Below, piece after piece: positions 1,369-37,707 of a DNA stretch of 64,000 nt. The notes under the pieces were generated by a model that did not search any database, was not told the origin of the DNA, and was given only the letters and a program-made list of their open reading frames with translations. A program made the position numbers and the translations under genes. Position 1 is the stretch's first letter. Every line of letters begins with the position of its first letter. The stretch lies in assembly GCA_964613815.1 (NCBI GenBank), contig CAZTKG010000002.1, forward strand, positions 118,299-182,298. The letters are read 5' to 3'. This DNA is from an uncultured Gammaproteobacteria bacterium (GTDB lineage Bacteria; Patescibacteriota; Patescibacteriia; UBA9934).

Positions 1369-2268
1369 ATGCGTACGTTGTTTCGATTGGCGATTGTGCT
1401 TTTGGTGGGGTATGGGGTGGTGTATTTTTTTGTTTTGCGTGGGGGAGGAGGGGAGGTGGTTCGGGTGGAGGTTGAGGAGGTGCGTTTTGAGGATGTTTTG
1501 GATGGTGGTGGCGCGGGTGATGACAGAATCATGCAGGATGAGATTGTTGATGAGGGGGAGGTTGAAGACGTTGATTCCGGAGAAGGGGACGAGGATTTGG
1601 ATGTTGATGATCATGATGACGTTATGCTGGATGAGGTTGCCGACGAGGGGGATCTCTCGACTTCGCTCGAGATGGGAATTGAGGAAATTGGTGGTTTACC
1701 TGCGGAGTTTAATTTGGCGGTACCGTTTACGTCTCAGGCGCCGCATGCGAATTGGGAGTTGCCTTATCAGGAGGCTTGTGAGGAGGCGAGTGCGTATATG
1801 GTGGCGGAATATTATGCCGGACGTGAGAGTGGGGTGATTGATGCGGGAGTGGCGGATGCGGCTATTTTGGAGGTTGTGGCGTTTCAGCAGGATTTGATTG
1901 GGGATTATTTGGATACGACGGCGGCAGAGACGGTGCAGTTTATTGATATGTTTTATGGGGTCGGGGCTCGGGTTGTCTATGATCCTGCCGTTGATGATAT
2001 TCGGGCGGAGATTGCGGCTGGGCGTCCGGTGATTTTGCCGGCTTCTGGGAAGGATCTTGAGAATCCGTTTTTTAGTGGCGACGGGCCGCTTTATCACATG
2101 CTTGTGATTAAGGGGTATGCGGATGGGGTGTTTATTGTGAATGATCCGGGGACGTATCGAGGGGAAAATTATGTGTATGATGAGGAGGTTTTGATGTCGG
2201 CGATGGGGGATTGGAATGGTGGGGACCCGGCGAATGGGGGGAAGGTTGTTATTTTTACGGAGAAATAA
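1369..2268 (+). CDS. C39-like peptidase domain protein (Peptidase_C39_2 / YvpB-like) with N-terminal TM helix and acidic linker
   Basis: The motif VPFTSQAP...QEACEEASAYMVAEYYAG matches the Peptidase_C39_2 signature (VP.I.Q.P...NGCE..S.AM...Y.G). It has an N-terminal TM helix and an acidic D/E-rich linker that contains an in-frame RPE-like repeat. Confidence 0.6.
   Translation: MRTLFRLAIVLLVGYGVVYFFVLRGGGGEVVRVEVEEVRFEDVLDGGGAGDDRIMQDEIVDEGEVEDVDSGEGDEDLDVDDHDDVMLDEVADEGDLSTSLEMGIEEIGGLPAEFNLAVPFTSQAPHANWELPYQEACEEASAYMVAEYYAGRESGVIDAGVADAAILEVVAFQQDLIGDYLDTTAAETVQFIDMFYGVGARVVYDPAVDDIRAEIAAGRPVILPASGKDLENPFFSGDGPLYHMLVIKGYADGVFIVNDPGTYRGENYVYDEEVLMSAMGDWNGGDPANGGKVVIFTEK
1647..1677. repeat. 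RPE-like palindromic element, half copy (right arm), in frame inside the C39-like peptidase gene
   Basis: GGGGATCTCTCGACTTCGCTCGAGATGGGA matches the right arm of the full copies at 4284 and 37603. It is translated as DLSTSLEMG. Confidence 0.7.
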
Positions 2269-2269
2269 T

Positions 2270-3637
2270 ATGAATAATACGTTGTTTGATTTGATGCCTG
2301 AGGGAGGGGGAGAGATCTCTCCACAAGGTCGAGATGGGGAGGGGGCGGTTCGAGATGGGGAGGGGGCGGTTCGGGATGAGAGTGAGGAGAGTGGGGCTTT
2401 GACGGTGGCGAAGTATTTGCATTTAGTGAATGAGACGCTTGGGCTTATTCCGAGTGATCGGATGAAGGTGGTGGGGGAGATTGTTGATTACAGAGTGAGT
2501 CAGGGGAAGTGGATTAATTTTGATTTGAAAGATGAGGAAGAGGATGCGAAAATTTCTTGTTTTGCGACGACGTTTAAGGTGAAGGGGCAGTTTGAGAGTG
2601 GGATGAAGGTGGAGGTGATGGGGTATCCGAAGGTGTATGAGCGGTTTGGGAAGTTTAGTTTGAATGTGCAGAGTTTGGAGCTTGTTGGTGAAGGAGCGCT
2701 TCATAAGGCGTATTTGATGTTGAAGGCGCAGCTTGAGAAAGAGGGGTTGTTTGATGTGGGACGGAAGCGAGGGTTGAAGCGGTTTCCTCGGCGGATTGGG
2801 CTTATTACGAGTCGAGAGGCGGCGGCGTATGGGGACTTTATGCGGATTTTGGGGAATCGGTGGGGCGGTGTTGAGGTGGTGCATGCGCATGTGCATGTGC
2901 AGGGGCAGCATGCGGTGAATGATATTTTGAAAGCTTTTGATGATTTTAATTCTGTGAGTGACCGTGAGGATGCGCCGGATGTGATTGTGCTTACGCGTGG
3001 GGGAGGAAGCTTGGAGGATTTGCATGCGTTTAATGATGAGGCGGTGGCGCGGGCGGTTTATGGGAGTAAGATTCCGGTGGTTGTAGGGGTTGGGCATGAG
3101 CGAGATGAGAGTTTGTGCGATTTTGTGGCGGATGTGCGAGCGAGTACGCCGAGTAATGCGGCGGAGCGGATTGTGCCTGACAGGCGAGAGGTATTAGGCG
3201 AAGTTGATACGAGCGTGCGTCGGATGGGAGGGCAGATGATGATGGCGGTCGAGCGGCGGAAGCGGGGGATTGTGCAGGCGAGTAATGTGTTTGTGCGGTT
3301 TGTGCAAGGACAGGTGTATCGGTTGAAGAGTGTGTTGCAGCGATTGCATCATCGGTTTGGGGCGTTTCAGGAAGAGCTTGCGTTGTATCGGGTTGATATG
3401 GAGCGGATGGATCATACGATGGAAAGAGGGTTAACGGGTGTTGTGCGGCAGTATAAGGAGCGTGTGGGGGCTTTGGAGCGGTTTTTGGGGCAGGTGGATG
3501 TGCAACGGGTGTTGAAGCGTGGGTTTTCGATTGTGCGGCAGGGGGAGCGGGTTGTGACGCGGGCTGATGGGGTTGCTGGAGGGGATGTGGTCGATGTACA
3601 ATTGGCGCACGGGAAGATTCAGGCGGAGGTAAAATAA
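2270..3637 (+). CDS. xseA: Exodeoxyribonuclease VII large subunit
   Basis: There is an OB-fold N-terminus and an XseA catalytic region (GLITSREAAAYGDFMRILGNRW...). The ATG at 2270 directly follows the upstream stop. An in-frame RPE copy plus a 21-bp tandem duplication sit near the N-terminus. Confidence 0.85.
   Translation: MNNTLFDLMPEGGGEISPQGRDGEGAVRDGEGAVRDESEESGALTVAKYLHLVNETLGLIPSDRMKVVGEIVDYRVSQGKWINFDLKDEEEDAKISCFATTFKVKGQFESGMKVEVMGYPKVYERFGKFSLNVQSLELVGEGALHKAYLMLKAQLEKEGLFDVGRKRGLKRFPRRIGLITSREAAAYGDFMRILGNRWGGVEVVHAHVHVQGQHAVNDILKAFDDFNSVSDREDAPDVIVLTRGGGSLEDLHAFNDEAVARAVYGSKIPVVVGVGHERDESLCDFVADVRASTPSNAAERIVPDRREVLGEVDTSVRRMGGQMMMAVERRKRGIVQASNVFVRFVQGQVYRLKSVLQRLHHRFGAFQEELALYRVDMERMDHTMERGLTGVVRQYKERVGALERFLGQVDVQRVLKRGFSIVRQGERVVTRADGVAGGDVVDVQLAHGKIQAEVK
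2309..2372. repeat. RPE-like element (right arm) followed by 2 x 21-bp tandem duplication, in frame in xseA N-terminus
   Basis: GGAGAGATCTCTCCACAAGGTCGAGATGGGG is followed by GAGATGGGGAGGGGGCGGTTC twice. It is translated as EISPQGRDGEGAVRDGEGAVRD. Confidence 0.7.
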
Positions 3638-3644
3638 TGACATT

Positions 3645-3869
3645 ATGACAACAAAAAAAGATCAAAAATTTGCGGAGGCGTTTGAACGACTTGAAAAGCT
3701 CGTGGAGTGGTTTGAGGGGGAGGATTTGGATCTCGATGAGGGGATTGCGAAGTTTGAGGAGGGGTTGGAGCTTGCGGGGGTTTGTAAGAAGAAACTTTTG
3801 GAGGTGGAGAATAAAGTGAAGTCTTTGCAGGAGAAGTATGCTTCTTCGCAGGAACAACAAGATTCTTAA
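3645..3869 (+). CDS. xseB: Exodeoxyribonuclease VII small subunit
   Basis: The 74-aa product begins AFERLEKLVEWFE...LDEGIAKFEEG, typical of XseB. It lies immediately downstream of xseA. Confidence 0.8.
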   Translation: MTTKKDQKFAEAFERLEKLVEWFEGEDLDLDEGIAKFEEGLELAGVCKKKLLEVENKVKSLQEKYASSQEQQDS

Positions 3870-3879
3870 TTTTGGAGGT

Positions 3880-4230
3880 ATGTATTTATTGTTACGGCTT
3901 TTGATTAATGCGCTTGCGCTTCTTGTGGTGACGCAGCTTGTGGCTGGGTTTAGTGTGGATACGTTTTATCATGCGCTTATTGCGGCGATTGTGCTTGGGA
4001 TCATCAATGCTGTGCTTCGGCCGGTTTTGGTTTTGTTGACGTTGCCGATTAATTTGTTGACGCTTGGGTTGTTTACGTTTGTGATTAATGGGGCGCTTAT
4101 TTGGTTTGTGGGGACGTTTGTGAAAGGGGTGGAGATTTCGGGTTTTTTGCCGGCGCTTATTGCGGCAATTTTGCTCTGGGCGATTAGTACTCTGAGTAAT
4201 ATGCTTGTCAAAGCGACGGATAAGATCTAA
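3880..4230 (+). CDS. DUF360 / phage-holin-family-4-like small membrane protein
   Basis: Four TM helices; the LLINALALLVVTQL...AVLRPVLVLLTLP pattern fits the DUF360 (YvlD-like) family. A GGAGG RBS precedes the ATG at 3880. Confidence 0.5.
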   Translation: MYLLLRLLINALALLVVTQLVAGFSVDTFYHALIAAIVLGIINAVLRPVLVLLTLPINLLTLGLFTFVINGALIWFVGTFVKGVEISGFLPALIAAILLWAISTLSNMLVKATDKI

Positions 4231-4283
4231 AGTTGGCGCGAAAGCGCCATTTTTCTTTCCCGTTCTGAGTGATTATTTTCATC

Positions 4284-4341
4284 TCCCATCTCGACCGACC
4301 GAAGGGAGTGGAGAGATCTCTCGACTTCGCTCGAGATGGGA
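4284..4341. repeat. RPE-like palindromic element, full copy, intergenic (overlaps pyrH RBS region)
   Basis: TCCCATCTCGACCGACCGAAGGGAGTGGAGAGATCTCTCGACTTCGCTCGAGATGGGA has inverted arms CCCATCTCGAC/GTCGAGATGGG around a central AGATCT. Confidence 0.8.
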
Positions 4342-4353
4342 AGGAAAAATATT

Positions 4354-5061
4354 ATGCCAAAACTTGAATTGCAGAAACAAAAGCCCGTTATTATTAGTGT
4401 TGGAGGATCCATGATTGTGCCGAATGGGGGGCCGGATGTGGAGTTTTTATCTAGATTGAAAGAATTTGTTTTGGGGATTGTTGAGCAGGACTGGAGAGTT
4501 ATTTTGGTCAGCGGCGGAGGGAAGACAGCTCGGCATTATATTGATGCGGCGGATGGGGTGCGGGGGGATGAGATTGATCCTGAGGATTTAGATTGGCTTG
4601 GGATTCACTGTACGCGCTTGAATGGGCATTTGCTTCGGACGATTTTTCGGGAGCATGCGTATCCTGTGGTGATTAAAGATCCTCGGCAGACGCCGGAGGA
4701 GTGGGATGAGGAGGTGCTGATTGCGGCTGGGTGGAAGCCTGGATGGAGTACGGATTATGTCGCTTGTCGGATTGCAGAGCGACTTGAGGTGGTGAATGTG
4801 GTGAATTTTAGTAATGTGGATTATGTGTATGAGGAGGATCCTCGGAAGAATCCTGATGCGAAGAGTTTGGATGCGGTGGATTGGAAGACGTATCGTGGGA
4901 TGGTGGGGGATGATTGGCATCCTGGGAAGAGTGCGCCGTTTGATCCTGTAGCGAGTCGGTTTTGTGAGGAGAATGGGATGCGAGTGGCGATGATTGGGAG
5001 TTTGGAGAGGGTGAAGGGGTTGTTTGAGAATGGGGAGTTTGAGGGGACGTTGATGGGGTAG
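4354..5061 (+). CDS. pyrH: UMP kinase, archaeal-type (amino-acid kinase family)
   Basis: VIISVGGSMIV...ILVSGGG amino-acid kinase motifs, ~235 aa as in archaeal UMPK. An AAGGA RBS precedes the ATG at 4354. The ATG at 4336 lies inside the repeat and is less likely. Confidence 0.7.
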   Translation: MPKLELQKQKPVIISVGGSMIVPNGGPDVEFLSRLKEFVLGIVEQDWRVILVSGGGKTARHYIDAADGVRGDEIDPEDLDWLGIHCTRLNGHLLRTIFREHAYPVVIKDPRQTPEEWDEEVLIAAGWKPGWSTDYVACRIAERLEVVNVVNFSNVDYVYEEDPRKNPDAKSLDAVDWKTYRGMVGDDWHPGKSAPFDPVASRFCEENGMRVAMIGSLERVKGLFENGEFEGTLMG

Positions 5062-5075
5062 ATTTGAAAAAAATA

Positions 5076-5106
5076 GCGCCCGCTGGCTGTGAAGCTGGCG
5101 GGCTTT
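5076..5106 (+). terminator. Hairpin + T-run downstream of pyrH
   Basis: GCCCGCTGGCTGTGAAGCTGGCGGGC followed by TTT. Confidence 0.45.
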
Positions 5107-5219
5107 GTGTTACGAGGGGGTCACGTCTGAGTAGTGGTGAGTGGGGCGATGACGATGCAGTATCGGATACCGGCAAGTCCTTCGATACCGGCTACTAGAT
5201 CGACGATCTTGTGGTCATG

Positions 5220-5254
5220 GCCCCCTAGTACGCATCTGCGGAACGGGGGTTTTG
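5220..5254. repeat. 35-bp direct repeat / hairpin (copy 1) GCCCCCTAGTACGCATCTGCGGAACGGGGGT
   Basis: A near-identical copy lies at 5574-5608, and both are followed by T-rich sequence. CCCCC...GGGGG stem. Confidence 0.6.
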
Positions 5255-5271
5255 AATTTGTACATACAATC

Positions 5272-5300
5272 TTGACAAAATTGGTATTTTGTGGTATTGT
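5272..5300 (+). promoter_or_regulatory. Sigma70-like promoter TTGACA-N17-TGG-TATTGT
   Basis: TTGACA at 5272, a 17-bp spacer ending in TGG, and TATTGT at 5295. The same architecture recurs at 15207, 18908 and 19255. Confidence 0.55.
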
Positions 5301-5326
5301 GGGAAAGTTTTTTACGGGAGAAAAAC

Positions 5327-5566
5327 ATGTTTGAGGATGTTCTTTCTTTTCTTTTCTGTGTCCTTCTGCTTGGCGTCGTCTTCGCCATGGTGGGTGATGA
5401 GGTGGTGGATGATTCTGTCCCGCTTCTCGCCGCTCTCGCGCCGGAGAAGCCGAAGCAGCTTCGGTTCGTTCCGGTGCCGGTGGATTGGAATCCGGCGCTC
5501 GAAGAGCTGCTGGGCACGGTCCAGTTTGAGGGAGAGGATTACGCGATTCGGAGTTTGGGCAACTAG
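5327..5566 (+). CDS. Small hypothetical membrane protein (79 aa), GC-rich codon usage
   Basis: A GGGAGA RBS and the ATG at 5327. There is one TM helix. The ORF is flanked by the 35-bp direct repeats and has atypical C-ending codons. Confidence 0.3.
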   Translation: MFEDVLSFLFCVLLLGVVFAMVGDEVVDDSVPLLAALAPEKPKQLRFVPVPVDWNPALEELLGTVQFEGEDYAIRSLGN

Positions 5567-5573
5567 CCTTTCG

Positions 5574-5608
5574 AATCGCGTGTAGCCCCCTAGTACGCAT
5601 TTGCGGAA
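5574..5608. repeat. 35-bp direct repeat / hairpin (copy 2), probable terminator of small ORF
   Basis: GCCCCCTAGTACGCATTTGCGGAACGGGGGTCTTGG followed by TTTTT. Confidence 0.6.
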
Positions 5609-5648: not shown

Positions 5649-5685
5649 GATTCCGAATGGATCCTTCACTGCGCTCTGGATGACA
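5649..5685. promoter_or_regulatory. Conserved 37-bp motif GATTCCGAATGGATCCTTCAC-N8-GGATGACA (copy 1 of 3), upstream of rplJ
   Basis: The same motif occurs at 25347-25382 and 37723-37758, in each case right after a terminator-like hairpin and followed by a G-run. Confidence 0.4.
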
Positions 5686-5697
5686 GGGGGTGAGAGG

Positions 5698-5726
5698 TTG
5701 ACCGTTTTTGATGATTGGTGTACAGT
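5698..5726 (+). promoter_or_regulatory. Putative rplJ promoter TTGACC-N17-TACAGT
   Basis: Sequence inspection, about 110 bp upstream of rplJ. Confidence 0.4.
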
Positions 5727-5835
5727 GCTCGCAACGCTGTAGACCGTAGGCATTTAAGTCCTACCGAGGCCTGAGATCATCATTGTGATGAAATTAGACT
5801 TTATCTGCGGCGATTAACGTCGTTTTTTTGTTTTT

Positions 5836-6357
5836 ATGGCTAAATCACGTCAACAGAAAGAGCAGATCGTTGCTGATGCAACGGATCGGTTCAAGCGGAT
5901 GAAGTCCGCTGCGTTTACGTCTATTTCTGGGTACACGATGGAGCAGGCTAATGAGCTTCAGAATCGTGCTGCGGAAGTTGGTGTGGATGTGTTTATTGCC
6001 AAGAAATCGCTTCTTTCGATTGCTGCCAAAGAGGCGGGAGTTGAGGGGCTTAATCCACGAGATTTTAGCGGATCTATCTTGACAGCTGTTTCGTTTGACG
6101 ACGAGGTGTCGGCAGCGAAGCTTTTGAAAGACTTTCAGAAAGAGAATGAAGATTTTGTTCTTGTTGGAGGTGTTTTGGAAGGGAAGGTTGTTGATTCTGA
6201 AGGTGTTGAGAAGTTGGCGAGTTTGCCGAGCAAAGAACAGTTGCTTGGACAGCTTGTTGGAACGCTCAATGCGCCAGTGTCTGGATTTGTTAACGTGCTC
6301 GCGGGGAATTTGCGAGGCTTGGTGACTGTTTTGAGCGCTATTCGCGATCAAAAGTAA
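5836..6357 (+). CDS. rplJ: 50S ribosomal protein L10
   Basis: The N-terminus (MAKSRQQKEQIVADATDRFK...) is typical of L10 and the gene is followed by rplL. Confidence 0.9.
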   Translation: MAKSRQQKEQIVADATDRFKRMKSAAFTSISGYTMEQANELQNRAAEVGVDVFIAKKSLLSIAAKEAGVEGLNPRDFSGSILTAVSFDDEVSAAKLLKDFQKENEDFVLVGGVLEGKVVDSEGVEKLASLPSKEQLLGQLVGTLNAPVSGFVNVLAGNLRGLVTVLSAIRDQK

Positions 6358-15127: not shown

Positions 15128-15206
15128 AGCGTATGTACTGTAGCATATGCGATTTTTGGGAAATGAAAATTTCAGTAGGTTTTTGTCAATATTTGTAATG
15201 AAATAC

Positions 15207-15235
15207 TTGACAGAGTGTATATTTTATGGTATTGT
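15207..15235 (+). promoter_or_regulatory. Sigma70-like promoter TTGACA-N17-TGG-TATTGT
   Basis: It has the same architecture as the promoters at 5272, 18908 and 19255. Confidence 0.5.
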
Positions 15236-15258
15236 TTTTTGTTCTTTTGGAGGGAGCG

Positions 15259-17423: not shown

Positions 17424-18395
17424 ATGATTCATGTGGCGCTTGAGCACGGAAATGATCGGAGGGGGATGGTGTATAAGTCGCTTCGAGAGACGAATGATTT
17501 TTTTGATGCGCTTCGAGAGAAGAAGCGTATTTTGATTAAGGTGAATTTGGTTCATCATGAGCTGCAGCTTGCGAGTACGCATGTGGATGCGGTTCGAGGG
17601 GTTTTGGATGCGATTCGGCAGGTGACAGGAATGCCGGTGGTGATTGGGGATGGGGCTTATCATGGAACGCCGGCGGCTTTTCGTCATTTTGGATATGATC
17701 GGCTCGTTGATGAATATGAGCAGGTTTCGCTTGTGGATTTGAATGAAGGGGGTGTGCGTGATGGGCATTCTATTCGGGCTGATGGAGGGAAGAATGCGAT
17801 TCGGCGGGCGGATTTGGCGCATGAGGTGGATTTTCGGATTTCGCTTACGCCGATGAAGATGGATCAGGATGTTGCGGTTTCGCTTAGTGTGAAAAATTGG
17901 GTGATGGGGACGTGGATTGTGCCGCCGAGGATTAGTGCTTCTGGGCGAGTTTGGGCGCGGTGGCCTTGGATGCATGAAGAGGGGATTTGGGCTCAGCATG
18001 CGACGATATCGTCGCTCTTTCAGCAGCTTCCTTGTGATTGGGCGGTGGTTGATGGGGTGCTTGCGATGCAGGGGGATGGACCGGTTCGGGGTACTGCGAT
18101 TGAGGGGGAGGTGGTATTATCTGGAGGAGATCCAGTTGCGGTAGATGCGGTGGCGGCGACGCTTATGGGGGTTGATCCTGGGGATGTTGGGTATTTATCT
18201 ATGCTTGCGGAAGCGGATGTTGGGGCGATTGATTTAGGGACGGTGAATGTGCCGCCGATGATGATGGCTCAGTTGACGCGTGTATTTGAGCGGCCTGTTT
18301 GGTTTGAGGATCGGCTTGGGAAATGGCGGAATGCGGCCATCTCGACTGGAATGGAAAGATCTCTCGACGCTGCTCGAGATGGGAGAGAAAATTGA
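17424..18395 (+). CDS. DUF362 domain-containing protein
   Basis: The DUF362-type N-terminus is RILIKVNLVHHE...VVIGDGAY. The last ~15 codons are contributed by an RPE-like element. Confidence 0.55.
   Translation: MIHVALEHGNDRRGMVYKSLRETNDFFDALREKKRILIKVNLVHHELQLASTHVDAVRGVLDAIRQVTGMPVVIGDGAYHGTPAAFRHFGYDRLVDEYEQVSLVDLNEGGVRDGHSIRADGGKNAIRRADLAHEVDFRISLTPMKMDQDVAVSLSVKNWVMGTWIVPPRISASGRVWARWPWMHEEGIWAQHATISSLFQQLPCDWAVVDGVLAMQGDGPVRGTAIEGEVVLSGGDPVAVDAVAATLMGVDPGDVGYLSMLAEADVGAIDLGTVNVPPMMMAQLTRVFERPVWFEDRLGKWRNAAISTGMERSLDAARDGREN
18336..18385. repeat. RPE-like palindromic element (full, short) forming the 3' end of the DUF362 gene
   Basis: GCCATCTCGACTGGAATGGAAAGATCTCTCGACGCTGCTCGAGATGGGA. 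It is translated as ISTGMERSLDAARDG. Confidence 0.7.
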
Positions 18396-19170: not shown

Positions 19171-19254
19171 TGCTTTCGCTTTCAATCGTGCACGCCTTGA
19201 ATGAGGCGTGTTTCGCATTTTTGAGGATTTTTGGGTGTTTTTGTCTAGTTTATC

Positions 19255-19283
19255 TTGACAAAATGGGGTTTTTATGGTATGTT
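19255..19283 (+). promoter_or_regulatory. Sigma70-like promoter TTGACA-N17-TGG-TATGTT
   Basis: Same architecture as above. It lies upstream of the GC-rich cassette array. Confidence 0.45.
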
Positions 19284-19388
19284 TGTCTGTTGTATTTTTT
19301 AAAAAATGATGAGAAATGTGTTGATTTTTCAGGGATATTTAGCGACTCTCCTCCTAAATATGCCTGTTCTATCAATCTGAGGTGAAAT

Positions 19389-25251: not shown

Positions 25252-25332
25252 TCCCATCTCGACCGAGTGTAATGAGTGGAGAGATCTGGTTTAACAGGGC
25301 TGCAGGATCTCTCCGCGTTGGTCGAGATGGGA
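25252..25332. repeat. RPE-like palindromic element (full, 81 bp with internal insertion) immediately after uvrB stop
   Basis: TCCCATCTCGACCGAGTGTAATGAGTGGAGAGATCTGG...GGATCTCTCCGCGTTGGTCGAGATGGGA, followed by a T-run, so it is a likely terminator. Confidence 0.8.
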
Positions 25333-25346: not shown

Positions 25347-25382
25347 GATTCCGAATGGATCCTTCGACCCTCAGGATGACAC
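25347..25382. promoter_or_regulatory. Conserved motif GATTCCGAATGGATCCTTCGAC-N7-GGATGACA (copy 2 of 3)
   Basis: It matches 5649-5685 and 37723-37758. Confidence 0.4.
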
Positions 25383-25785: not shown

Positions 25786-28341
25786 ATGAAAGATAAAATT
25801 ACGATTAAAGGTGCGCGAGAGCATAACCTCAAAAATATTGATTTGGCGTTGCCGCGTAATAAATTGATTTGTTTTACGGGACTTTCTGGAAGCGGGAAGT
25901 CTAGTTTGGCGTTTGATACGATTTTTGCGGAAGGGCAGCGGCGGTATATTGAGAGTTTGAGTGCGTATGCGCGGCAGTTTTTGGGGCAGATGCAGAAGCC
26001 GGATGTGGATGAGATTGATGGGTTGAGTCCGGCGATTAGCATCGATCAAAAAGCGCATAGTCGGAATCCACGGTCGATTGTGGCGACGGTGACGGAGATT
26101 TATGATTATTTGCGTGTGTTGTATGCGCGTGTTGGAAAGGCGGTTTGCCCGACGTGTCGGAGTAGTATTGAGCGGATGGGGGTTGATGGGATTGTGGTGG
26201 CTGCTTTGCGGGATCTTGGTGAGCACCCGCGGCAGAAAGGAAGAGATCTCCCGACTTCGCTCGAGATGGGAAAATTATCAGGAGGTGAAGTTCAGATTTT
26301 GGCTCCGGTGATTCGAGGGCGGAAGGGGGAGTATTATCAGCTTTTGTATGATCTTTATAATCAGGGGTTTGCGAAAGTGCGCGTTGACGGGAAGGAGCAT
26401 CGGCTTAGTGAGAAAATTAAGTTATCGCGTTATAAGAAGCATGATATTGAAGTGATTATTGATACGATTCCGGCGACGGCATTGAAGGATCCGAGTCAGG
26501 ACGATCGGCAGCGGATTAATGAGGCGGTGGAGCGAGCAATTGAGGTTGGGGAGGATTTGGCGCTTGTGGTGTTTCCGGATGGGCATGAGCGGTTGTTTAG
26601 TACGAAGTTTAGTTGTGTGGATTGTGGGTTTTCGTTTCCGGAGATTGAGCCTCGGCTGTTTAGTTTTAATAGTCCTTATGGAGCATGTCAGCCTTGTGGG
26701 GGGCTTGGGACGACGGAGCTTTTTAGTGAAGATTTGTGTGAGGTTTGTGAAGGGGCTCGGCTTCGGCCTGAGGGGCGGAGTGTTTTGGTTGGAGGGAAGT
26801 CGATTGTGGAAGCCGTTGGGATGACGATTGGGAATAGTGCGCAATGGTTTTTGGAGCTTGAGCTGGATGAGCGGCAGATGGAGATTGCGGGAGCGGCGTT
26901 GAATGAGATTCAGAATCGTCTTTCTTTTCTTGATGATGTTGGGCTTGATTATTTGACGCTTGATCGGCGGGCGGGGACGCTCAGTGGTGGAGAGGCGCAG
27001 CGGATTCGGCTTGCGAGTCAGGTAGGATCAAGACTTGTGGGGGCGCTTTATGTTCTTGATGAACCTACAATTGGTCTCCATCAGCGGGACAATGAGCAGT
27101 TGATTCGGACTTTGGAAGATCTTCGAGATTTGGGGAATACGGTGATTGTGGTTGAGCATGATGAGGATACGATTCGGCGGTCGGATTTTATGGTTGAGAT
27201 TGGGCCCGGGGCTGGTGTGCATGGAGGGAATGTGATTGCGGCGGGGGAGGTGCCGGCGATTTTTGAGGATAAGAATTCTCGGACGGCGGCGTATATGCGA
27301 GGGGATGAGGGGATTGAGGTGCCGAAGAAGCGACGGAAGGTTGGGCGGGATAAGATTAAGGTTGTGGGGGCTGAGGCGCATAATTTGAAGAAGTTGAATG
27401 TGGAGTTTCCGCTTCGGCGGTTTGTGTGTGTGACGGGGGTGAGTGGGAGTGGGAAGTCAACGCTTGTGCATGATGTGATGTATAGCGCGCTTGCGAAAAA
27501 ATTGAATGGGCGGAAAAAGAAGCCTGGGAAGCATAAGGCGGTGATGGGGGTTGAGTATATTGATAAGATTGTTTTGATTAATCAGTCGGCGATTGGGCGG
27601 ACGAGTCGGTCGAATCCTGCGACGTATACCGGGGCTTGGGGGCCGATTCGGGAGTTGTTTGCGGCAACGGAAGAGGCACGGTTTCGTGGGTATAAGCCTG
27701 GGCGGTTTAGTTTTAATGTGCCCGGAGGTCGATGTGATAATTGTGATGGGCATGGGAAGATTGCGATTGAGATGCATTTTTTGCCGACGGTGCATGTGGA
27801 GTGTGATGTGTGTAAGGGGAAGCGATTTAGGCGGGAGACGCTTGAGGTTGTTTGGAATGAAAAGAATATTTGGCAGGTGCTTGATATGACGGTTGAGGAG
27901 GGGGCGGTGTTTTTTAAGAATGTTCCTACGGTGTTTGAGAAGTTGAAGACAATGAATGAGGTTGGGCTTGGGTATTTGAAGTTGGGACAGAGTGCGACGA
28001 CGCTCAGTGGAGGAGAGGCGCAGCGGGTGAAGCTCGCCACGGAACTATCGAAACGACAGACGGGACGGACGTTGTATATTTTGGATGAGCCGACGACGGG
28101 GTTGCATTTTGAAGACATTAAGAAGTTGCTTCAGGTGTTGCATCGGTTGGTGAGTAAGGGGAATTCTGTGGTTGTGATTGAGCATAATTTGGATGTGATT
28201 AAGACGGCGGATTGGATTATTGATTTGGGGCCTGATGGTGGGGAGCGTGGAGGGAAGCTTGTGATTGCGGGGACGCCGGAGGAGGTTGCGCGTTGTGCAC
28301 AGAGTGAGACGGGGAAATATTTGAAGCATTATGTTGATTGA
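25786..28341 (+). CDS. uvrA: Excinuclease ABC subunit A
   Basis: Two ABC ATPase modules (GLSGSGKSSL, GVSGSGKSTL; LSGGEAQR twice) with zinc-finger Cys clusters. It contains an in-frame RPE half-copy at 26239-26272. Confidence 0.9.
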   Translation: MKDKITIKGAREHNLKNIDLALPRNKLICFTGLSGSGKSSLAFDTIFAEGQRRYIESLSAYARQFLGQMQKPDVDEIDGLSPAISIDQKAHSRNPRSIVATVTEIYDYLRVLYARVGKAVCPTCRSSIERMGVDGIVVAALRDLGEHPRQKGRDLPTSLEMGKLSGGEVQILAPVIRGRKGEYYQLLYDLYNQGFAKVRVDGKEHRLSEKIKLSRYKKHDIEVIIDTIPATALKDPSQDDRQRINEAVERAIEVGEDLALVVFPDGHERLFSTKFSCVDCGFSFPEIEPRLFSFNSPYGACQPCGGLGTTELFSEDLCEVCEGARLRPEGRSVLVGGKSIVEAVGMTIGNSAQWFLELELDERQMEIAGAALNEIQNRLSFLDDVGLDYLTLDRRAGTLSGGEAQRIRLASQVGSRLVGALYVLDEPTIGLHQRDNEQLIRTLEDLRDLGNTVIVVEHDEDTIRRSDFMVEIGPGAGVHGGNVIAAGEVPAIFEDKNSRTAAYMRGDEGIEVPKKRRKVGRDKIKVVGAEAHNLKKLNVEFPLRRFVCVTGVSGSGKSTLVHDVMYSALAKKLNGRKKKPGKHKAVMGVEYIDKIVLINQSAIGRTSRSNPATYTGAWGPIRELFAATEEARFRGYKPGRFSFNVPGGRCDNCDGHGKIAIEMHFLPTVHVECDVCKGKRFRRETLEVVWNEKNIWQVLDMTVEEGAVFFKNVPTVFEKLKTMNEVGLGYLKLGQSATTLSGGEAQRVKLATELSKRQTGRTLYILDEPTTGLHFEDIKKLLQVLHRLVSKGNSVVVIEHNLDVIKTADWIIDLGPDGGERGGKLVIAGTPEEVARCAQSETGKYLKHYVD
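26239..26272. repeat. RPE-like element (right arm) in frame inside uvrA
   Basis: GGAAGAGATCTCCCGACTTCGCTCGAGATGGGA is translated as RDLPTSLEMG, immediately before the conserved ILAPVIRGRKGE segment. Confidence 0.75.
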
Positions 28342-28367: not shown

Positions 28368-28506
28368 GTCGGCGTCGAGGTGCCGTGCGACGTCGGGTCG
28401 GGACACCTTTAGCGTCAAGCCCGTTTATTTTTGCTACAGGATGGATGGGGCTGGAGCGGCGGTGTCATATCCTCCGCCTCCTTACGCACGGCACCTCGAC
28501 GCCGAC
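28368..28506. repeat. Inverted-repeat element: 22-bp perfect arms (GTCGGCGTCGAGGTGCCGTGCG / CGCACGGCACCTCGACGCCGAC) around a ~95-bp GC-rich core, in the uvrA-uvrC spacer
   Basis: Direct sequence comparison: the arms at 28368-28389 and 28485-28506 are exact reverse complements. Confidence 0.7.
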
Positions 28507-30260: not shown

Positions 30261-30412
30261 TTGACAGGTTTGAGGGGATTTGATAAGCAATGGCTAACTT
30301 GGCGTGGAATCTTGTGTGAATCAAGAACTGTCTCTCTGCAACGGTTTCTGCTTAGTCCGATCTTCGTCCAGGTTGCATTTAAACATCAGCGTCAGAGAGC
30401 GCTGATGTTTTT
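30261..30412 (+). ncRNA. Candidate small transcription unit (weak TTGACA-N17-TAAGCA promoter to strong terminator), possible sRNA or truncated leader
   Basis: TTGACA at 30261. There is a strong rho-independent terminator ACATCAGCG-TCAGAGAG-CGCTGATGT-TTTTT at 30378-30412 and no convincing ORF. Confidence 0.2.
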
Positions 30413-30551
30413 TATGATGAAAAAACCTCGACACGGATGTCGAGGGTCGGTGGTAAGCGCTGCGGCGCACTGCGTGGCGAAGCCTTGCATTGCGTGGATA
30501 TTTGATCATGAATTTGGGTTGGTGTCAATGAGTATGTTTTGTCGAGATGGG

Positions 30552-32118: not shown

Positions 32119-32231
32119 TCATCTCGACCTTGCTGGAGAGATCTCATCCTGCCAGCACGGCTGATATTTACCGACGTCGGTGATCATTGCTCGCGGTACC
32201 GAAGAGGGTCTCTCCAGCAAGGTCGAGATGA
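32119..32231. repeat. MITE-like composite RPE-family element: 23-bp perfect terminal inverted repeats (GTCATCTCGACCTTGCTGGAGAG) flanking a ~65-bp core
   Basis: The arms are exact reverse complements and share the CATCTCGACC/GGTCGAGATG ends with the RPE family. It is intergenic, upstream of mraZ. Confidence 0.75.
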
Positions 32232-33826: not shown

Positions 33827-34147
33827 ATGCGAGAAAGATTGCAAACAATTCAACTGTTTTTGCAAGATCGGAGCTGGATTCAGCTTGCGGTTTTGGCTGT
33901 GACGATTGTGATTGGCGTGCTTTACATCTGGCAGGTTAATCTGAGCGCGACGCGAGGGTTTGCGATGCGGGATTTGGATCGTCAGGTGGAAGATATGGGG
34001 ATTCAGAATGAGCGAAATCTTTTGGAGGTTGCGAGGTTGAGATCGGTAGACAGTGTGAGTAAGCGGGTTCAGATGCTTGGGCTTGTGGAGGTGGATGTGG
34101 CGGATTATATTGATGCGGGAGATAGCGCGGTGGCGGTGAATAAATAA
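33827..34147 (+). CDS. FtsL-like cell division protein (septum formation initiator family)
   Basis: Small bitopic protein (TM helix LAVLAVTIVIGVLYIW followed by a coiled coil) at the canonical position after rsmH. Confidence 0.5.
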   Translation: MRERLQTIQLFLQDRSWIQLAVLAVTIVIGVLYIWQVNLSATRGFAMRDLDRQVEDMGIQNERNLLEVARLRSVDSVSKRVQMLGLVEVDVADYIDAGDSAVAVNK

Positions 34148-34155
34148 GGGGGCAG

Positions 34156-34186
34156 GAAGAGATCTCTCCACAGCGGTCGAGATGGC
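34156..34186. repeat. RPE-like element, right-arm half copy, intergenic
   Basis: GGAAGAGATCTCTCCACAGCGGTCGAGATGG. Confidence 0.7.
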
Positions 34187-34223
34187 TGCGGGGTGGAGGG
34201 TTTTTTGATATACTGAGGCCACT

Positions 34224-35831
34224 ATGACTGATGGTGCTTTAGGTGCTTCTTCTTCACGTCGGCCTCGGCCGGCGGTGCTTATGGTTATTGATGGGTTTGG
34301 GGTTGCGCCAGATAGTGAGGGGAATGCGGTGACGCGGGCGAAGATGCCTGTTTTTGATGAATTGACGAAGCGGTATCCGGTTGTGACGCTTAGGGCCAGT
34401 GGAGAGACGGTTGGTTTGATGTGGGGGGAGATGGGTAATAGTGAGGTTGGGCATTTGACGATTGGGGCTGGGCGGGTGTATTACCAGGCGTTGCCTCGGA
34501 TTGAGCGGGCTGTGAAGGATAAGAGTTTGTTTGAAAATGAGTCTTTGGTTGAGGCGATGGAGCATGCGAAAAAAGGCGGGGGGACACTGCATTTGATGGG
34601 GATCATGTCTTCCGGGAAGGTTCATGGGTATAATTCGCATTGTTATGCTGTTTTGGAGATGGCGAAGCAGATGAAGGTGAAGAAGGTGGTGATTCATGCG
34701 ATTTTGGATGGGCGGGATACGCTTTATAATTCTGGGATGGATTTTTTGGTGGAGCTTAATCAGAAAATGGATGAGATTGGGGTTGGAGTGATTGGGAGTT
34801 TGAGCGGGCGGTATTTTGCGATGGATCGGGATAATCGGTGGGATCGGGTTGAGAAGGCGTATAACGCGATTGCGCTTGGGCAGAGTGCGGAGCAGTTTGA
34901 GGATGCGATTGAGGCGGTGAAGGCTTCTTATGCGAAGGAAGTTTATGATGAGGAGTTTGTGCCGGTTGTGATGACGAAAAAAGGAAAGCCGGTTGGGACG
35001 GTAGAGGCTGGGGATGCGATGGTGTTTTTTAACTATCGACCAGATCGGGCGCGGCAGATTACGAAGGCGTTTTGTTTGCCGAGTTTTGATAAGTTTTCTC
35101 GGGAGTTTATTCCAGAGGTGTATATGGCGACGTTTGGGGAGTATGAGGCTGGGTTGCCGGTTCATGTGGTGTTTCCGCCGACGAAGATTAAGAATTGTTT
35201 GGCCGAGGTGCTGTCAAATGCGGGGCTTGTGCAGCTTCATATTGCCGAGACGGAGAAGTATGCGCATGTGACGTTTTTTATGAATGGGACGCGGGAGGAG
35301 CCTTATCCGAATGAGGATCGGGAGATCATTCCTTCGCCGAAAGTGCCGAGCTATGATCAGAAGCCGGAGATGAGCGCGCCGGAGATTACGGAGAAGGTTG
35401 TGTCAGAAATCAAAACCGGAAATTACGATGTGATTATTATGAACTTTGCCAATCCGGATATGGTTGGGCATACGGGGGATGTTGCGGCGACGATTAAGGG
35501 GAATGAAACGGTGGATGCGTGTGTGGGGAAGATTGTGGAGGCGGTTTTGGCGGCGGATGGAGTGCTTTTTATCACAGCGGATCATGGGAATGGGGAGGAG
35601 GTTTCGAATTTGCAGACGGGGGATGTGGATAAGGAGCATAGTACGAATCCGGTTCCGTTCTATATAATAGGAAAACAGTATGAAGGGCATCCTGGTATGG
35701 CTGGTGATGTGCCGAATGGGGATCTTTCGTTTATGCCGCCGATTGGAATTTTGGCGGATGTGGCTCCGACGATGTTGAAGGTGCTTGGGATTGAGCAACC
35801 GCCTGAGATGACGGGGACGCCGTTAATTTGA
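34224..35831 (+). CDS. gpmI: 2,3-bisphosphoglycerate-independent phosphoglycerate mutase
   Basis: iPGM motifs VLMVIDGFG, the catalytic Ser region GNSEVGHL and the metal-binding C-terminal domain (ADHGN). Confidence 0.85.
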   Translation: MTDGALGASSSRRPRPAVLMVIDGFGVAPDSEGNAVTRAKMPVFDELTKRYPVVTLRASGETVGLMWGEMGNSEVGHLTIGAGRVYYQALPRIERAVKDKSLFENESLVEAMEHAKKGGGTLHLMGIMSSGKVHGYNSHCYAVLEMAKQMKVKKVVIHAILDGRDTLYNSGMDFLVELNQKMDEIGVGVIGSLSGRYFAMDRDNRWDRVEKAYNAIALGQSAEQFEDAIEAVKASYAKEVYDEEFVPVVMTKKGKPVGTVEAGDAMVFFNYRPDRARQITKAFCLPSFDKFSREFIPEVYMATFGEYEAGLPVHVVFPPTKIKNCLAEVLSNAGLVQLHIAETEKYAHVTFFMNGTREEPYPNEDREIIPSPKVPSYDQKPEMSAPEITEKVVSEIKTGNYDVIIMNFANPDMVGHTGDVAATIKGNETVDACVGKIVEAVLAADGVLFITADHGNGEEVSNLQTGDVDKEHSTNPVPFYIIGKQYEGHPGMAGDVPNGDLSFMPPIGILADVAPTMLKVLGIEQPPEMTGTPLI

Positions 35832-35847
35832 TAATGACTATAATTTT

Positions 35848-36744
35848 ATGGGGGATGAACAGCACGTTGCGCCTGAAGCGCAGCCGGCTCCTGGGAAGAG
35901 TACTTCTGTTGCTGTGCATAGCAGTGGTGGAAAAGGGTTTTTGATTTCGACGGTTGTTTTGGCGGTATTGCTTTGTGGCGCTGTGGCGTTTGCACTTATT
36001 ATGAGCATGAAGGCTGGTGAAGCGGATGAGCATGTGGATATTTGGGAAGGGCAGGCGCAGGTTTGTGAGTTTGAGCTTGGGGAGTGTATGGCGACGGTGG
36101 ATGAGATGGAGAGTGAGGAGGATGAAGTTGAGGCGTTTATGACGTTTGATGGTGGTGAGGTGGTTTTGGATACGGAAGCTGATGCGAAAACATTGACGAT
36201 CGGTGCTTATAATGATGCGCGGTATGACTGTATGGCGATTGATCCGTTTGGCGCGACGTATGCCATGGGGGTAGATGGATTGGCGGATGAGGCGACGGTG
36301 GAAGGTATTGCTGGATTTACGGATGCTTCGGAGAGTCTTTTGATTAATCTCCAAGGGTTGATGGAGCAGCATGATTATTTGAATGCTGGAAGTCTTTGTC
36401 GGCATCAAGATGTGTTGTATGTGACGCTTGGGAATAATCGACATGTGGGGATCTTTAAGGCTGATATGAGTGAGGCGGGAGAAGTGACGGCATTGAAGCG
36501 ACTAGGAGGTTGGTTTGAGCAGTGGTATGGATCTGATGGGATGTATTTTGGAGGACCTGGGGATGAGGTTGCGTATGCACAGGTCTATGCGGATGCGGGC
36601 GCGTCTCAGTGGCGGGTATGGGCGTATGATGCGGATACAGGGGTTTATGATTTGATTGAGTCTTGTGGTCAGAATAATCCAGACTTGGTAGAAGGGCCGT
36701 ATGTTGAATGTGCTCGTGAGTATGTCCGCAATGAGGTAGAGTAG
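35848..36744 (+). CDS. Hypothetical membrane-anchored acidic protein (298 aa)
   Basis: One TM helix (FLISTVVLAVLLCGAVAFALIM), an acidic extracytoplasmic domain with Cys pairs, and a good downstream terminator. Confidence 0.45.
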   Translation: MGDEQHVAPEAQPAPGKSTSVAVHSSGGKGFLISTVVLAVLLCGAVAFALIMSMKAGEADEHVDIWEGQAQVCEFELGECMATVDEMESEEDEVEAFMTFDGGEVVLDTEADAKTLTIGAYNDARYDCMAIDPFGATYAMGVDGLADEATVEGIAGFTDASESLLINLQGLMEQHDYLNAGSLCRHQDVLYVTLGNNRHVGIFKADMSEAGEVTALKRLGGWFEQWYGSDGMYFGGPGDEVAYAQVYADAGASQWRVWAYDADTGVYDLIESCGQNNPDLVEGPYVECAREYVRNEVE

Positions 36745-36762
36745 ATTAATATTTGTTATGAT

Positions 36763-36790
36763 GAGGCGACCTGAGAGGGTCGTCTTTTTT
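36763..36790 (+). terminator. Rho-independent terminator GGCGACC-TGAGAG-GGTCGTC-TTTTTT
   Basis: Sequence inspection. Confidence 0.7.
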
Positions 36791-36794
36791 GTAT

Positions 36795-36864
36795 CCCATC
36801 TCGAGCGCAGTCGCGAGATCTGATGGCGGCAGGGTTGCAAGATCTCTCCACAAGGTCGAGATGG
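36795..36864. repeat. RPE-like palindromic element (full copy), intergenic upstream of nth
   Basis: TCCCATCTCGAGCGCAGTCGCGAGATCTGATGGCGGCAGGGTTGCAAGATCTCTCCACAAGGTCGAGATGG. Confidence 0.8.
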
Positions 36865-36887
36865 CAATGAGATGAGTAGTTTGATTT

Positions 36888-37640
36888 ATGACAAAGCGCG
36901 AAGAAAACATTAGACAAATTTTAGCGGTTTTGAAAAAGCGTTGGCCTACGCCTGGAGCGATGGAGATTGGGAATGCGTATATGGCGGTGGTGGCAGTTGC
37001 GCTTAGTGCTCGGACGCGGGATGAGCAGGTTTTGAAGTTGTTGCCGCGGTTTTTTGGGGTGTATCCGACACCTTTGGCGTTATCAAAAGCGACGCCTGAG
37101 GAGATTGAGGGGTACATTAACACGATCGGGATGTATCGGCAGAAGGCGCGGAATTTGCAGAAGATGGCGGTGCGGGTTTGTGAAGTTTATGATGGGAAGA
37201 TTCCTGGTAATATGGAGGATTTGACATCGCTTGCGGGGGTTGGGCGGAAGACAGCGAGTGTGATTTTGCCGTATATTTTTGGGAAGCCGGCGATTGCGGT
37301 GGATACGCATGTGCATCGGGTGACGAATCGGCTTGGATGGGTGAAGACGCAAATGCCGGCGGAGACGGAGAAGGCGCTTTTGAAGATTGTGCCGGAGGAT
37401 GTGCATCCGACGGTGAATCGGGTGTTTGTGAAGCATGGGCGGTATGTCTGTATTTCGAAGCCTCGATGTTGGGCGTGTCCGGTGCGGGATATGTGTCCGT
37501 TTGCGGAGAAGAATTTGGTGGAGCCGAAGGATGCTGAGGAGATTTTGGTGGATATTGAGCGGAGGGAGGAGGTGGTTCAGCGGCTTCGGGAGGGGGTTGA
37601 GGTCCCATCTCGACCGAATGAAGTGAGTGGAGAGATCTGA
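36888..37640 (+). CDS. nth: Endonuclease III (DNA-(apurinic or apyrimidinic site) lyase)
   Basis: HhH-GPD motif (LTSLAGVGRKTASVIL), catalytic Asp (AVDTHVHRV) and the 4Fe-4S cluster C-x6-C-x2-C-x5-C. The last 12 codons come from an RPE element. Confidence 0.85.
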   Translation: MTKREENIRQILAVLKKRWPTPGAMEIGNAYMAVVAVALSARTRDEQVLKLLPRFFGVYPTPLALSKATPEEIEGYINTIGMYRQKARNLQKMAVRVCEVYDGKIPGNMEDLTSLAGVGRKTASVILPYIFGKPAIAVDTHVHRVTNRLGWVKTQMPAETEKALLKIVPEDVHPTVNRVFVKHGRYVCISKPRCWACPVRDMCPFAEKNLVEPKDAEEILVDIERREEVVQRLREGVEVPSRPNEVSGEI

Positions 37641-37707
37641 TTATGGTGGGGATGAAGGGGTGGACGACGGGAGGATTGCAAGATCTCTCCACAAGGTCGA
37701 GATGGGG
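37603..37707. repeat. RPE-like palindromic element (full, 105 bp); left arm supplies the C-terminus and stop of nth, right arm + T-run acts as terminator
   Basis: TCCCATCTCGACCGAATGAAGTGAGTGGAGAGATCTGA...CAAGATCTCTCCACAAGGTCGAGATGGGGA followed by GGGGTTTTTTT. Confidence 0.8.

Follow-up and report, generated by a model that had tools for sequence, protein, structure and literature searches.

We analyzed a stretch of 64,000 nucleotides (hereinafter the window; contig CAZTKG010000002.1, positions 118,299 to 182,298 of the forward strand, assembly GCA_964613815.1) from an uncultured bacterium placed in the patescibacterial lineage UBA9934. The window is gene-dense and up to about 50 kb its genes are nearly all on the plus strand. 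At the boundaries of these genes, and in some cases within them, lies a family of short hairpin repeats, whose neighbors include xseA, rplJ, uvrB, uvrA, mraZ, nth and recJ. We propose that these elements are a lineage-specific dialect of the class of hairpin repeats described as CGTC-tagged repetitive extragenic palindromic (REP) sequences and as Ssn-related motifs (SRMs), the latter being associated with genes for small GIY-YIG nucleases of the Ssn type; we put the probability of this reading at roughly 0.8.

A dispersed family of hairpin repeats

A search of the window for the consensus GTCGAGATGGG, allowing at most one mismatch, recovered 19 matches, against a mean of 2.06 and a maximum of 6 in 100 dinucleotide-preserving shuffles. 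A unit finder based on structure returned 24 matches against 3.0 in shuffles, and 15 of these 24 belong to the present hairpin family; four degenerate members, added by relaxed rules and inspection, bring the total to 19 units. They are distributed over 13 sites, every one of which lies between 1.6 and 37.8 kb, amounting to about one site per 2.8 kb. No unit was found in the 38-64 kb part of the window, nor in the 8.6 kb upstream and 9.4 kb downstream of it in the same genome. The matches to GTCGAGATGGG at 30541, 46297, 49615 and 55492 are lone 11-mers that lack the remainder of the unit and were taken as chance matches. Within the window the copies are only 65-90% alike. Neither Rfam (at gathering thresholds and at E <= 10, over the window and eight repeat-rich loci) nor a full-text literature search for the literal repeat sequences, which returned primers only, gave a match at the units.

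An earlier note on this DNA, made from the sequence alone, had listed ten copies of what it called an "RPE-like" palindromic family. All ten were recovered, with coordinates correct to within a few bases, and the enrichment over shuffles bears out that a dispersed palindromic family is present. The comparison with RPEs was also apt: Rickettsia RPE-4 and RPE-6 belong to the superfamily of CGTC-tagged REPs (Di Nocera, De Gregorio and Rocco, 2013; PMC3733652), and here too there is an in-frame copy in a gene (uvrA). On the other hand, the list was incomplete, having overlooked three GTC-tagged units with an ATCC(T/A) stem (5661-5681, 25359-25377 and 37734-37754), and it put the density at about one copy per 6 kb.

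Anatomy and covariation of the hairpin unit

Comparison of the copies in the window with those in other genomes revealed that the basic element is a hairpin unit of 19-30 nt and not a palindrome of 60-110 nt. Read along the strand bearing the tag, its order is a 3-nt tag, A-NNNN, GA, S, the loop, S', GA, N'N'N'N'-T and C. The 5-bp stem, which starts with an A-T pair, and the S-S' pair are complementary, and the two GA dinucleotides are opposed to each other as tandem G·A/A·G mismatches. The loop is 3-6 or 13-16 nt in length and CGNAGT-like in a part of the units. The tag is CCC in 11 of the 19 window units, GTC in five and GCC in three; GTC is the tag in most bacteria, and despite the shift to CCC or GCC the window tags keep both the final C and the polarity of the unit. 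A C directly 3' of the palindrome is present in all 19 units, as CT or CC.

Twelve of the 19 units form six dimers, all of them head-to-head, and the other seven are solo. This architecture recasts the two kinds of copies distinguished earlier. The supposed full copies are head-to-head pairs of two hairpin units, and the AGATCT ascribed to them as a core is the junction at which the tail of one unit (...GAGAT-CT) abuts that of its inverted partner (AG-ATCTC...). The supposed right-arm half copies are complete single units on the complementary strand rather than halves, and the seven solo units correspond to these four together with the three overlooked GTC-tagged ones. In four of the six dimers (4288, 25256, 36798 and 37607) the loop of the plus unit, at 14 nt in three cases, exceeds that of the minus unit (5-6 nt) in length.

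We assessed the stem by covariation, avoiding circularity by using 80 loci selected by protein and not by repeat, with the matches anchored on non-stem bases only. All four free stem positions are complementary in 38 of 45 anchored matches, as against 6.3 expected when the partners are permuted. In an alignment of 19 sequences, 93.9% of the cells pair (71.9% in shuffles), five of the six pairs show compensatory changes on both sides, and the covariation score of 0.665, as opposed to 0.225 in shuffles, is reached by none of 500 shuffles. When the register is slid, pairing falls to 20-55%. The unit is an inverted repeat forming a hairpin, as are the SRMs and the neisserial NTS repeats discussed below.

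The window dimers are complementary enough to form long hairpins, and their folding z-scores as single-stranded DNA (ssDNA) range from -3.1 to -5.9 relative to shuffled sequences. The long hairpin as the selected structure throughout the class was nonetheless rejected: partners elsewhere often differ in their stems, each of which is internally compensated. A hammerhead or other ribozyme, for which GUC and GAAA are present, was also dropped on account of the missing CUGAUGA core and the varying arrangements.

Sites and gene context in the window

The units, with their strand and surroundings, are as follows in window coordinates:

1652-1673, minus strand: solo unit, tag CCC, stem ATCTC/GAGAT, loop CGAAGT; in frame in the N-terminal linker of a Peptidase_C39_2 open reading frame (ORF; 1369-2268), the Pfam domain of which begins at residue 116
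2315-2335, minus strand: solo unit with a CCC tag and the loop CTTGT; in the N-terminus of xseA as called (start 2270 or 2294)
2328-2372, minus strand: two partial tag-end copies beside the 2315 unit, each with the tag, the 5' half-stem and about 11 nt, at a 21-nt period
4288-4337: head-to-head dimer of units 4288-4317 (plus, 14-nt loop) and 4316-4337 (minus, loop CGAAGT), overlapping at AGATCT; intergenic, ending 16 nt upstream of the start codon of AA_kinase at 4354; folding z-scores as ssDNA -3.1 and -3.8
5661-5681, minus strand: solo unit of the second subtype, tag GTC, stem ATCCA/AGGAT (4 of 5 paired); intergenic, upstream of rplJ
18339-18380: head-to-head dimer of units 18339-18360 (plus, tag GCC, stem 4 of 5 paired) and 18359-18380 (minus, tag CCC); read through by a DUF362 ORF
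25256-25328: head-to-head dimer with a 21-nt core, units 25256-25285 (plus, 14-nt loop) and 25307-25328 (minus); begins 9 nt past the uvrB stop codon; ssDNA fold z -5.9 and -5.5
25359-25377, minus strand: solo unit, tag GTC, stem ATCCT/AGGAT, 3-nt loop; in the uvrB-uvrA spacer
26246-26267, minus strand: solo unit, tag CCC, 3' GA changed to GG; in frame within uvrA
32121-32229: head-to-head dimer of units 32121-32142 (plus) and 32208-32229 (minus), each tagged with the canonical TGTC; arms perfect over 25 nt and a core of 65 nt (67 nt separate the 25-nt arms); intergenic, upstream of mraZ
34162-34183, minus strand: solo unit, tag GCC; intergenic, 41 nt upstream of the iPGM start codon
36798-36862: head-to-head dimer with a 22-nt core, units 36798-36819 (plus, 3' GA changed to GC) and 36842-36862 (minus, tag GCC); intergenic, before nth
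37607-37703: head-to-head dimer with a 46-nt core, units 37607-37636 (plus, 14-nt loop) and 37683-37703 (minus); ssDNA fold z -4.5 and -5.4
37734-37754, minus strand: solo unit, tag GTC, stem ATCCA/AGGAT (4 of 5 paired); between nth and recJ

Overall, the units occupy gene boundaries or tolerant segments of proteins. At least one of the 13 sites is certainly intragenic (uvrA) and four more are possibly so (in xseA, nth and the DUF362 and C39-peptidase ORFs). The unit at 26246 encodes most of a 12-residue insert in UvrA, GRDLPTSLEMGK, situated in a variable linker and absent in an alignment from all 11 of the closest homologues (74-77% identity). The DUF362 ORF continues through the 18339 dimer to a stop at 18395 and is 323 residues long against 306-308 in relatives, and the final 11 or so codons of nth extend into the plus unit of the 37607 dimer, with the stop at 37640. 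Two short-read contigs of this population terminate in this region, L004 at window position 37706 and L005 at 36784; both ends are at or just before dimers, and the repeats break assemblies.

Phyletic distribution of the unit

A scan of a collection of species-representative genomes with a generalized arm, GATYTCTCSACNNNGSTCGARATG, matched at least 119 genome loci; among viral contigs there were only two matches. The figures in this section apply to the matches listed. Their hosts span the Bacteroidota, Clostridia, Chloroflexota, Planctomycetota, Verrucomicrobia, Acidobacteria, Pseudomonadota and Patescibacteria. They include cultured Bacteroidota such as Pedobacter, Flavobacterium, Gillisia, Polaribacter, Pontibacter, Aquimarina and Winogradskyella, and further Dialister, Pseudomonadales, Ghiorsea and Saccharibacteria. 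Nearly all of the arms end in ...ATGAC, which corresponds to the tag GTC. In 875 kb of such loci we found 398 units versus 92 in shuffles, and the combination of a GTC tag with a CT tail, seen in 218 units, occurred once in shuffles. The GTC tag is present in 264 of the 398 units, the tail is CT in 230 and CC in 43, and there are at least 17 distinct stem sequences, each with its matching complement. Neighboring units elsewhere are mostly head-to-head and 6-44 nt apart: 67 adjacent pairs are plus-minus, compared with 22-33 in each of the other arrangements, and in 37 pairs the gap does not exceed 45 nt. The partners in such pairs are often unlike in both stem and loop length.

Association with GIY-YIG nuclease genes

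The gene that brackets such units across bacteria codes for a GIY-YIG nuclease of the Ssn type with about 95 residues, and not for the partner transposase that had been anticipated. A case close to the window is the relative L128, which has the same gene order and a UvrA 75% identical to ours. Its uvrB-uvrA spacer contains CCC-tagged units together with a 94-residue GIY-YIG ORF that fills the position of the core: its ATG lies 5 nt past the plus unit and its TAG stop codon overlaps the inverted unit. The same GIY-YIG family occurs beside units in four repeat-selected loci from Dehalococcoidia, Flavobacteriales and others.

The association holds in the converse direction. A protein-first scan of metagenome contigs yielded 80 loci, in 24 of which GTC-tagged units lie within 150 nt of the ORF and in 15 of which they do so on both sides. 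The dominant layout is a plus unit, the ORF and an inverted unit. The chance expectation is essentially zero. The GIY-YIG family is very large, with at least 8000 candidates; its members have 93-100 residues and PF01541 as their sole domain. The unit-flanked ORFs have 94-98 residues, typically about 95, with an invariant Y5, Y16 and E63, and their nearest solved structures are UPF0213 proteins. The published SsnA has the catalytic residues Y6, Y17 and E64 (mutants Y6A, Y17A and E64A; Chenal et al., 2025; PMC11893778). The common length, the single domain and the Tyr/Tyr/Glu set in their sequences suggest that the flanked ORFs belong to the same family as Ssn (CDD model cd10448).

Indirect support for this assignment comes from homologues 44-61% identical to them, beside which lie canonical NTS-like SRMs such as TGTCATTCCCGCGAAGGCGGGAATCCAG that match the published SRM pattern. 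Sorting the 80 loci by repeat class gave 21 with canonical SRMs only, 22 with tandem-GA units only, one with both and 36 with neither. In 42 of 44 cases a protein and its nearest labeled neighbor agree in repeat class, and two alignment columns discriminate between the classes (K versus W and V versus T). Hence, the near mutual exclusion of the two classes at loci, together with their segregation among protein neighbors, indicates that the tandem-GA unit is a second dialect with its own nuclease subclade.

Expansion in this lineage

By its UvrA homologues (70-77% identity), the window is placed in Patescibacteria near Candidatus Uhrbacteria. Comparison of orthologous loci, which the earlier note had suggested, uncovered relatives with the same gene order and without units (L127), or with units only around ssn (L128). 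In numbers, the 19 units in 36 kb here compare with none in 14.8 kb of L127 and with 3-4 in 22.5 kb of L128, all beside ssn. The uvrB-uvrA spacer measures 540 bp here, and the two genes abut in another relative. The units have thus expanded in this lineage specifically. Its CCC tag represents an additional shift, which the units around the L128 ssn have in common with it.

The sequence of the window is also present in several marine metagenome assemblies, in contigs of up to 579 kb. We found no strain polymorphism at the units in eight public loci (six distinct contigs, four assemblies and two sequencing runs); this uniformity, along with the 65-90% similarity among copies, runs counter to the idea of an active or recently active family. 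There is a positional hint that dimers could be deleted ssn modules: the L128 ssn is located in the uvrB-uvrA spacer, and another relative has a 96-residue GIY-YIG ORF after nth. Nevertheless, tblastn searches of the dimer cores for ssn remnants gave only noise (E >= 0.2) and the derivation of dimers from ssn modules by internal deletion is unsupported.

Strand bias and tag-end stutter

The tag strand of all seven solo units in the window is the minus strand, antisense to the genes (two-sided binomial probability about 0.016). Based on the GC skew, the minus strand is presumed to be the leading-strand template; it is also the transcribed strand, and within this window the effects of replication and transcription on the bias are inseparable. 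A second asymmetry is a stutter, in which the tag, the 5' half-stem and about 11 nt recur with a period of 18-33 nt. Of 260 units in other genomes, 10 have such a stutter beside them, in no case at the tail end; the loci with tag-end stutter are window 2328-2372 and L008, L019, L047, L062, L104, L109, L112, L117 and L121. The stutter copies may reflect repeated rounds of cutting and repair on the 5' side of the tag, and both asymmetries fit a single-strand process at the tag end. At the repeat-selected loci, 44 of 63 solo units run in the direction of the gene 5' of them, a weak bias from a crude ORF-based analysis.

Other features of the window

The GC skew itself is +0.24 to +0.53 over positions 1-50000, far above typical bacterial values, with C making up 15.6% of the plus-strand bases of the window. 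This extreme skew coincides with the placement of nearly all genes on the plus strand. At about 50000-64000 there is an island of low GC content and low skew, which encodes DUF2130, Fic, a type I restriction-modification system (HsdM/S/R), DUF6119 and ParB-methyltransferases. The island continues for 9 kb past the end of the window (L212) with a terminase, a GIY-YIG/DUF4357 protein and a serine recombinase, has no hairpin units, and is probably an integrated element.

At about 11336 the window is devoid of 19 nt that are present in the same-population contigs L209 and L210, reducing an MscS-like ORF from 258 to 219 residues; the difference is due either to variation between strains or to an assembly error. 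At 30278-30413 on the plus strand, a sub-threshold match to the AdoCbl riboswitch (40.6 bits against a gathering score of 50, E 3e-4) precedes an ORF starting at 30539 or 30635 that has a weak receiver-domain match. A weak match to the L10 leader at 5719-5837 on the plus strand (28.9 bits versus 44) is directly upstream of rplJ and plausible by position.

Other palindromes and repeats are also seen. Two perfect palindromes, 48625-48668 (44 nt) and 48766-48811 (46 nt), about 100 nt apart in the spacer after a DsbA-like ORF, have a common core, GGTCCGTACGGACC; they have no relation to the hairpin family and may represent a pair of operators or terminators. A perfect, G+C-rich 22-nt inverted repeat (28368-28389 and 28485-28506), with arms 95 nt apart, lies between uvrA and uvrC. 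Finally, a promoter-like sequence, CTTGACA-N17-TGGTAT(T/G)(G/T)T, has three intergenic copies at 5271-5313, 15206-15248 and 19254-19296 (family D15).

Relationship to known repeat systems

The closest known counterpart is the Ssn system of Neisseria (Chenal et al., 2025, Nat Commun; PMC11893778). There, the NTS repeat CGTCATTCCCGCGMAVGCGGGAATCYRG, an extended dRS3, and the related SRMs are associated with ssnA, a 94-residue single-domain GIY-YIG gene that has repeats on both sides in 42% of homologues, and the NTS-ssnA-NTS layout has been likened to an insertion sequence (IS). SsnA binds the hairpin exclusively in ssDNA and exclusively on the tag strand, cutting it a few nucleotides upstream; it does not act on dsDNA, RNA or the complementary strand, and RNA is not bound. 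Cleavage is governed by the three bases upstream of the palindrome and binding by the C just after it, and in N. meningitidis the system restricts transforming ssDNA (PMC11893778). The association of units with ssn, which we found independently, was therefore already published. The SRM/NTS repeats and the tandem-GA units are alike in being hairpins about 20-50 nt long, which take their polarity from an unpaired 5' tag and have a conserved C after the palindrome. In both there are hundreds of dispersed copies, and in both (for the tandem-GA type, at loci of other genomes) a gene for a GIY-YIG protein of about 94 residues with a catalytic Tyr/Tyr/Glu lies between inverted copies. They differ in that the three inner Watson-Crick pairs of NTS (CGC/GCG) are replaced here by the tandem G·A mismatches plus one covarying pair, and in the frequency of intragenic copies, which make up 2% in N. 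meningitidis as against at least one certain and four possible among 13 sites here.

The second relative is the superfamily of CGTC-tagged REPs (Di Nocera, De Gregorio and Rocco, 2013, BMC Genomics; PMC3733652), which besides the Rickettsia elements includes the dRS3 of Neisseria. It is defined by an unpaired CGTC, TGTC or CCTC tag, a stem beginning with A-T then T-A and a short tail. Its members are mostly head-to-head dimers, often heterodimers, occur inside genes, in particular uvrA, uvrB and other repair genes, and have no known dedicated transposase (PMC3733652). The unpaired tag, the A-T(C)... start of the stem, the CT tail, the head-to-head dimers and the intragenic uvrA copy recur in the window units. 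However, CCC is not among the listed tag variants, Patescibacteria are not among the five phyla listed for these REPs, and their perfect 8-9 bp stem with a 4-5 nt loop contrasts with the 5 bp, two G·A and 1 bp of the units here, with loops of 3-6 or 13-16 nt.

The GTAG REPs and REPINs share with the units a short tagged hairpin, the head-to-head doublets and, as a prediction for the units here, recognition as ssDNA by a small, single-copy, repeat-flanked enzyme thought to be domesticated. They differ in having GTAG and not GTC or CCC as the tag and in their RAYT partner, an HUH tyrosine (IS200-like Y1) transposase rather than a GIY-YIG protein; no PF01797 protein is found among the called genes. 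MITEs (miniature inverted-repeat transposable elements) such as Correia, ERIC and Nezha resemble the family in being small, non-coding, dispersed and palindromic, with in-frame read-through being possible. However, they have terminal inverted repeats matching a parent IS and target-site duplications, neither of which is found here, where the repeat unit is a single hairpin.

Mechanism and alternative explanations

Building on the observed anatomy, covariation, distribution, gene association and uvrA insertion, our proposal that the elements are a dialect of the CGTC-tagged REP/SRM class entails the following mechanism, modeled on Neisseria. When exposed as a single strand in imported DNA or in replication and repair intermediates, the tag strand would fold into the hairpin and be bound by an Ssn nuclease of about 94 residues, which would cut the ssDNA a few nucleotides 5' of the tag. 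The nuclease gene would typically sit between two inverted units in an IS-like layout, and the dispersed units and dimers would be copies of the ends of this nuclease module that mark the host chromosome as nuclease sites. In the present lineage the copies have multiplied after the split from the nearest sampled relatives, landing in intergenic spacers and tolerant protein linkers. By analogy, this organism would possess a cognate Ssn that acts on these sites.

Several observations weigh against this proposal. No ssn gene was found in 84 kb of this genome, which takes in the window and 18 kb of its flanks. The published SRM pattern, HGTCWYN(0-2)YYVSBRHN(0-5)WNVSBRGN(0-2)RNCYNB, has no match in the window; nor does it recognize the GTC-tagged tandem-GA consensus, although an NTS consensus serving as control is matched. 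The SRM tag is (C/T)GTC, and only five of the 19 window units have GTC, the other tags being 11 CCC and three GCC; it is these three bases that affect cleavage most in Neisseria. Moreover, single units folded as ssDNA reach only -1.8 to -3.2 kcal/mol (z +0.5 to +1.3) and are no stabler than shuffled sequences, although the nearest-neighbor model may undervalue tandem G·A pairs.

The reading favored by the earlier note, that of a classical MITE, would have the palindromes as internally deleted copies of a DDE or IS200/IS605 element mobilized in trans by its transposase. The elements are indeed short and dispersed with inverted-repeat ends and variable cores, the termini of the pan-bacterial form are TGT...ACA, and assemblies break at them (L004 at 37706 and L005 at 36784). 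We nevertheless regard this reading as very improbable. None of the six dimers is flanked by target-site duplications, and transposases are absent from the called genes of the window, as the earlier note had said, and from its flanks. Further, solo units are common with each stem covarying alone, dimer partners elsewhere often have different stems, the gene between inverted units encodes a GIY-YIG nuclease, and no transposase was found in association with CGTC REPs (PMC3733652). A somewhat better case exists for elements acting at the RNA level, with the hairpins serving as terminators, stabilizers of mRNA 3' ends or translational regulators, as proposed for many REPs. Most copies are found where genes end or a short way before start codons, several have a T-run about 10-25 nt further on, the 44 of 63 co-directional genes noted above in repeat-selected loci point the same way, and many REPs have been argued to be transcribed (PMC3733652). 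Against this, the T-runs are not adjacent to the stem, Rfam gave no match with the cutoff relaxed to E <= 10, units elsewhere are mixed in their orientation to genes, and copies lie in frame within coding sequence. All solo units of the window are antisense to the genes, so that the mRNA carries the pyrimidine-mismatch strand. The sequence conservation is better accounted for by the conserved unpaired tag bases together with an ssDNA nuclease dedicated to them, and RNA is not bound by SsnA (PMC11893778). A purely RNA-level role appears unlikely, and a secondary one may exist as a side effect.

A conserved operator of a DNA-repair regulon might be suspected from the units near xseAB, uvrBAC, nth and recJ and from lexA, located 4 kb upstream of the window. 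That the positions are not conserved largely refutes it: of the relatives sharing this gene order, L127 has no units and L128 has them only around ssn. Copies also occur in coding regions and by the AA kinase, iPGM, DUF362 and mraZ genes, and the same unit is dispersed in unrelated phyla, leaving this the least credible of the alternatives. The earlier note had held that equivalent sequence at orthologous positions in unrelated genomes would indicate a regulatory motif: the unit is in fact pan-bacterial, but its positions are not orthologous, a combination that points to a shared system of nuclease sites rather than to such a motif.

Beyond membership in the CGTC-tagged REP/SRM class, a more speculative extension can be considered, which we hold as a tentative possibility that is more likely to be wrong than right. 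The tandem-GA unit and its own Ssn subclade might constitute a distinct, pan-bacterial, self-propagating ssDNA element with the layout unit/ssn/inverted unit, the ends of which would be copied as solo units and as gene-less head-to-head dimers. In this lineage the tag could then have shifted from GTC to CCC along with the cleavage specificity of the nuclease, or as an escape from cleavage, and the strand bias of solo units and the tag-end stutter could be traces left where exposed single strands were cleaved 5' of the tag.

Implications

While the class as such is already described, in the form of CGTC REPs and Ssn-related motifs, no earlier description appears to exist of the tandem-GA dialect, of its distinct Ssn subclade, of the CCC tag or of a dense and in part intragenic load in a patescibacterial genome. 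In practical terms, the repeats explain very common spurious or extended ORFs (with peptides such as ...DLSTSLEMG... and ...EISPQGRDG...) as well as contig breaks in metagenomes. CGTC-type REPs and dRS3/RPE elements were unexplained for two decades until the 2025 work on Ssn supplied a partner enzyme, and the pattern published with it captures one stem type. The second stem type, with its tandem G·A, is at least as common at metagenome ssn loci and reaches into a candidate-phylum bacterium related to Uhrbacteria. This wider repertoire of nuclease sites bears on the proposal that Ssn enzymes be employed as programmable cutters of ssDNA, and its natural variants, GTC versus CCC in the tag and mismatched versus paired in the stem, offer material for dissecting recognition by this family.

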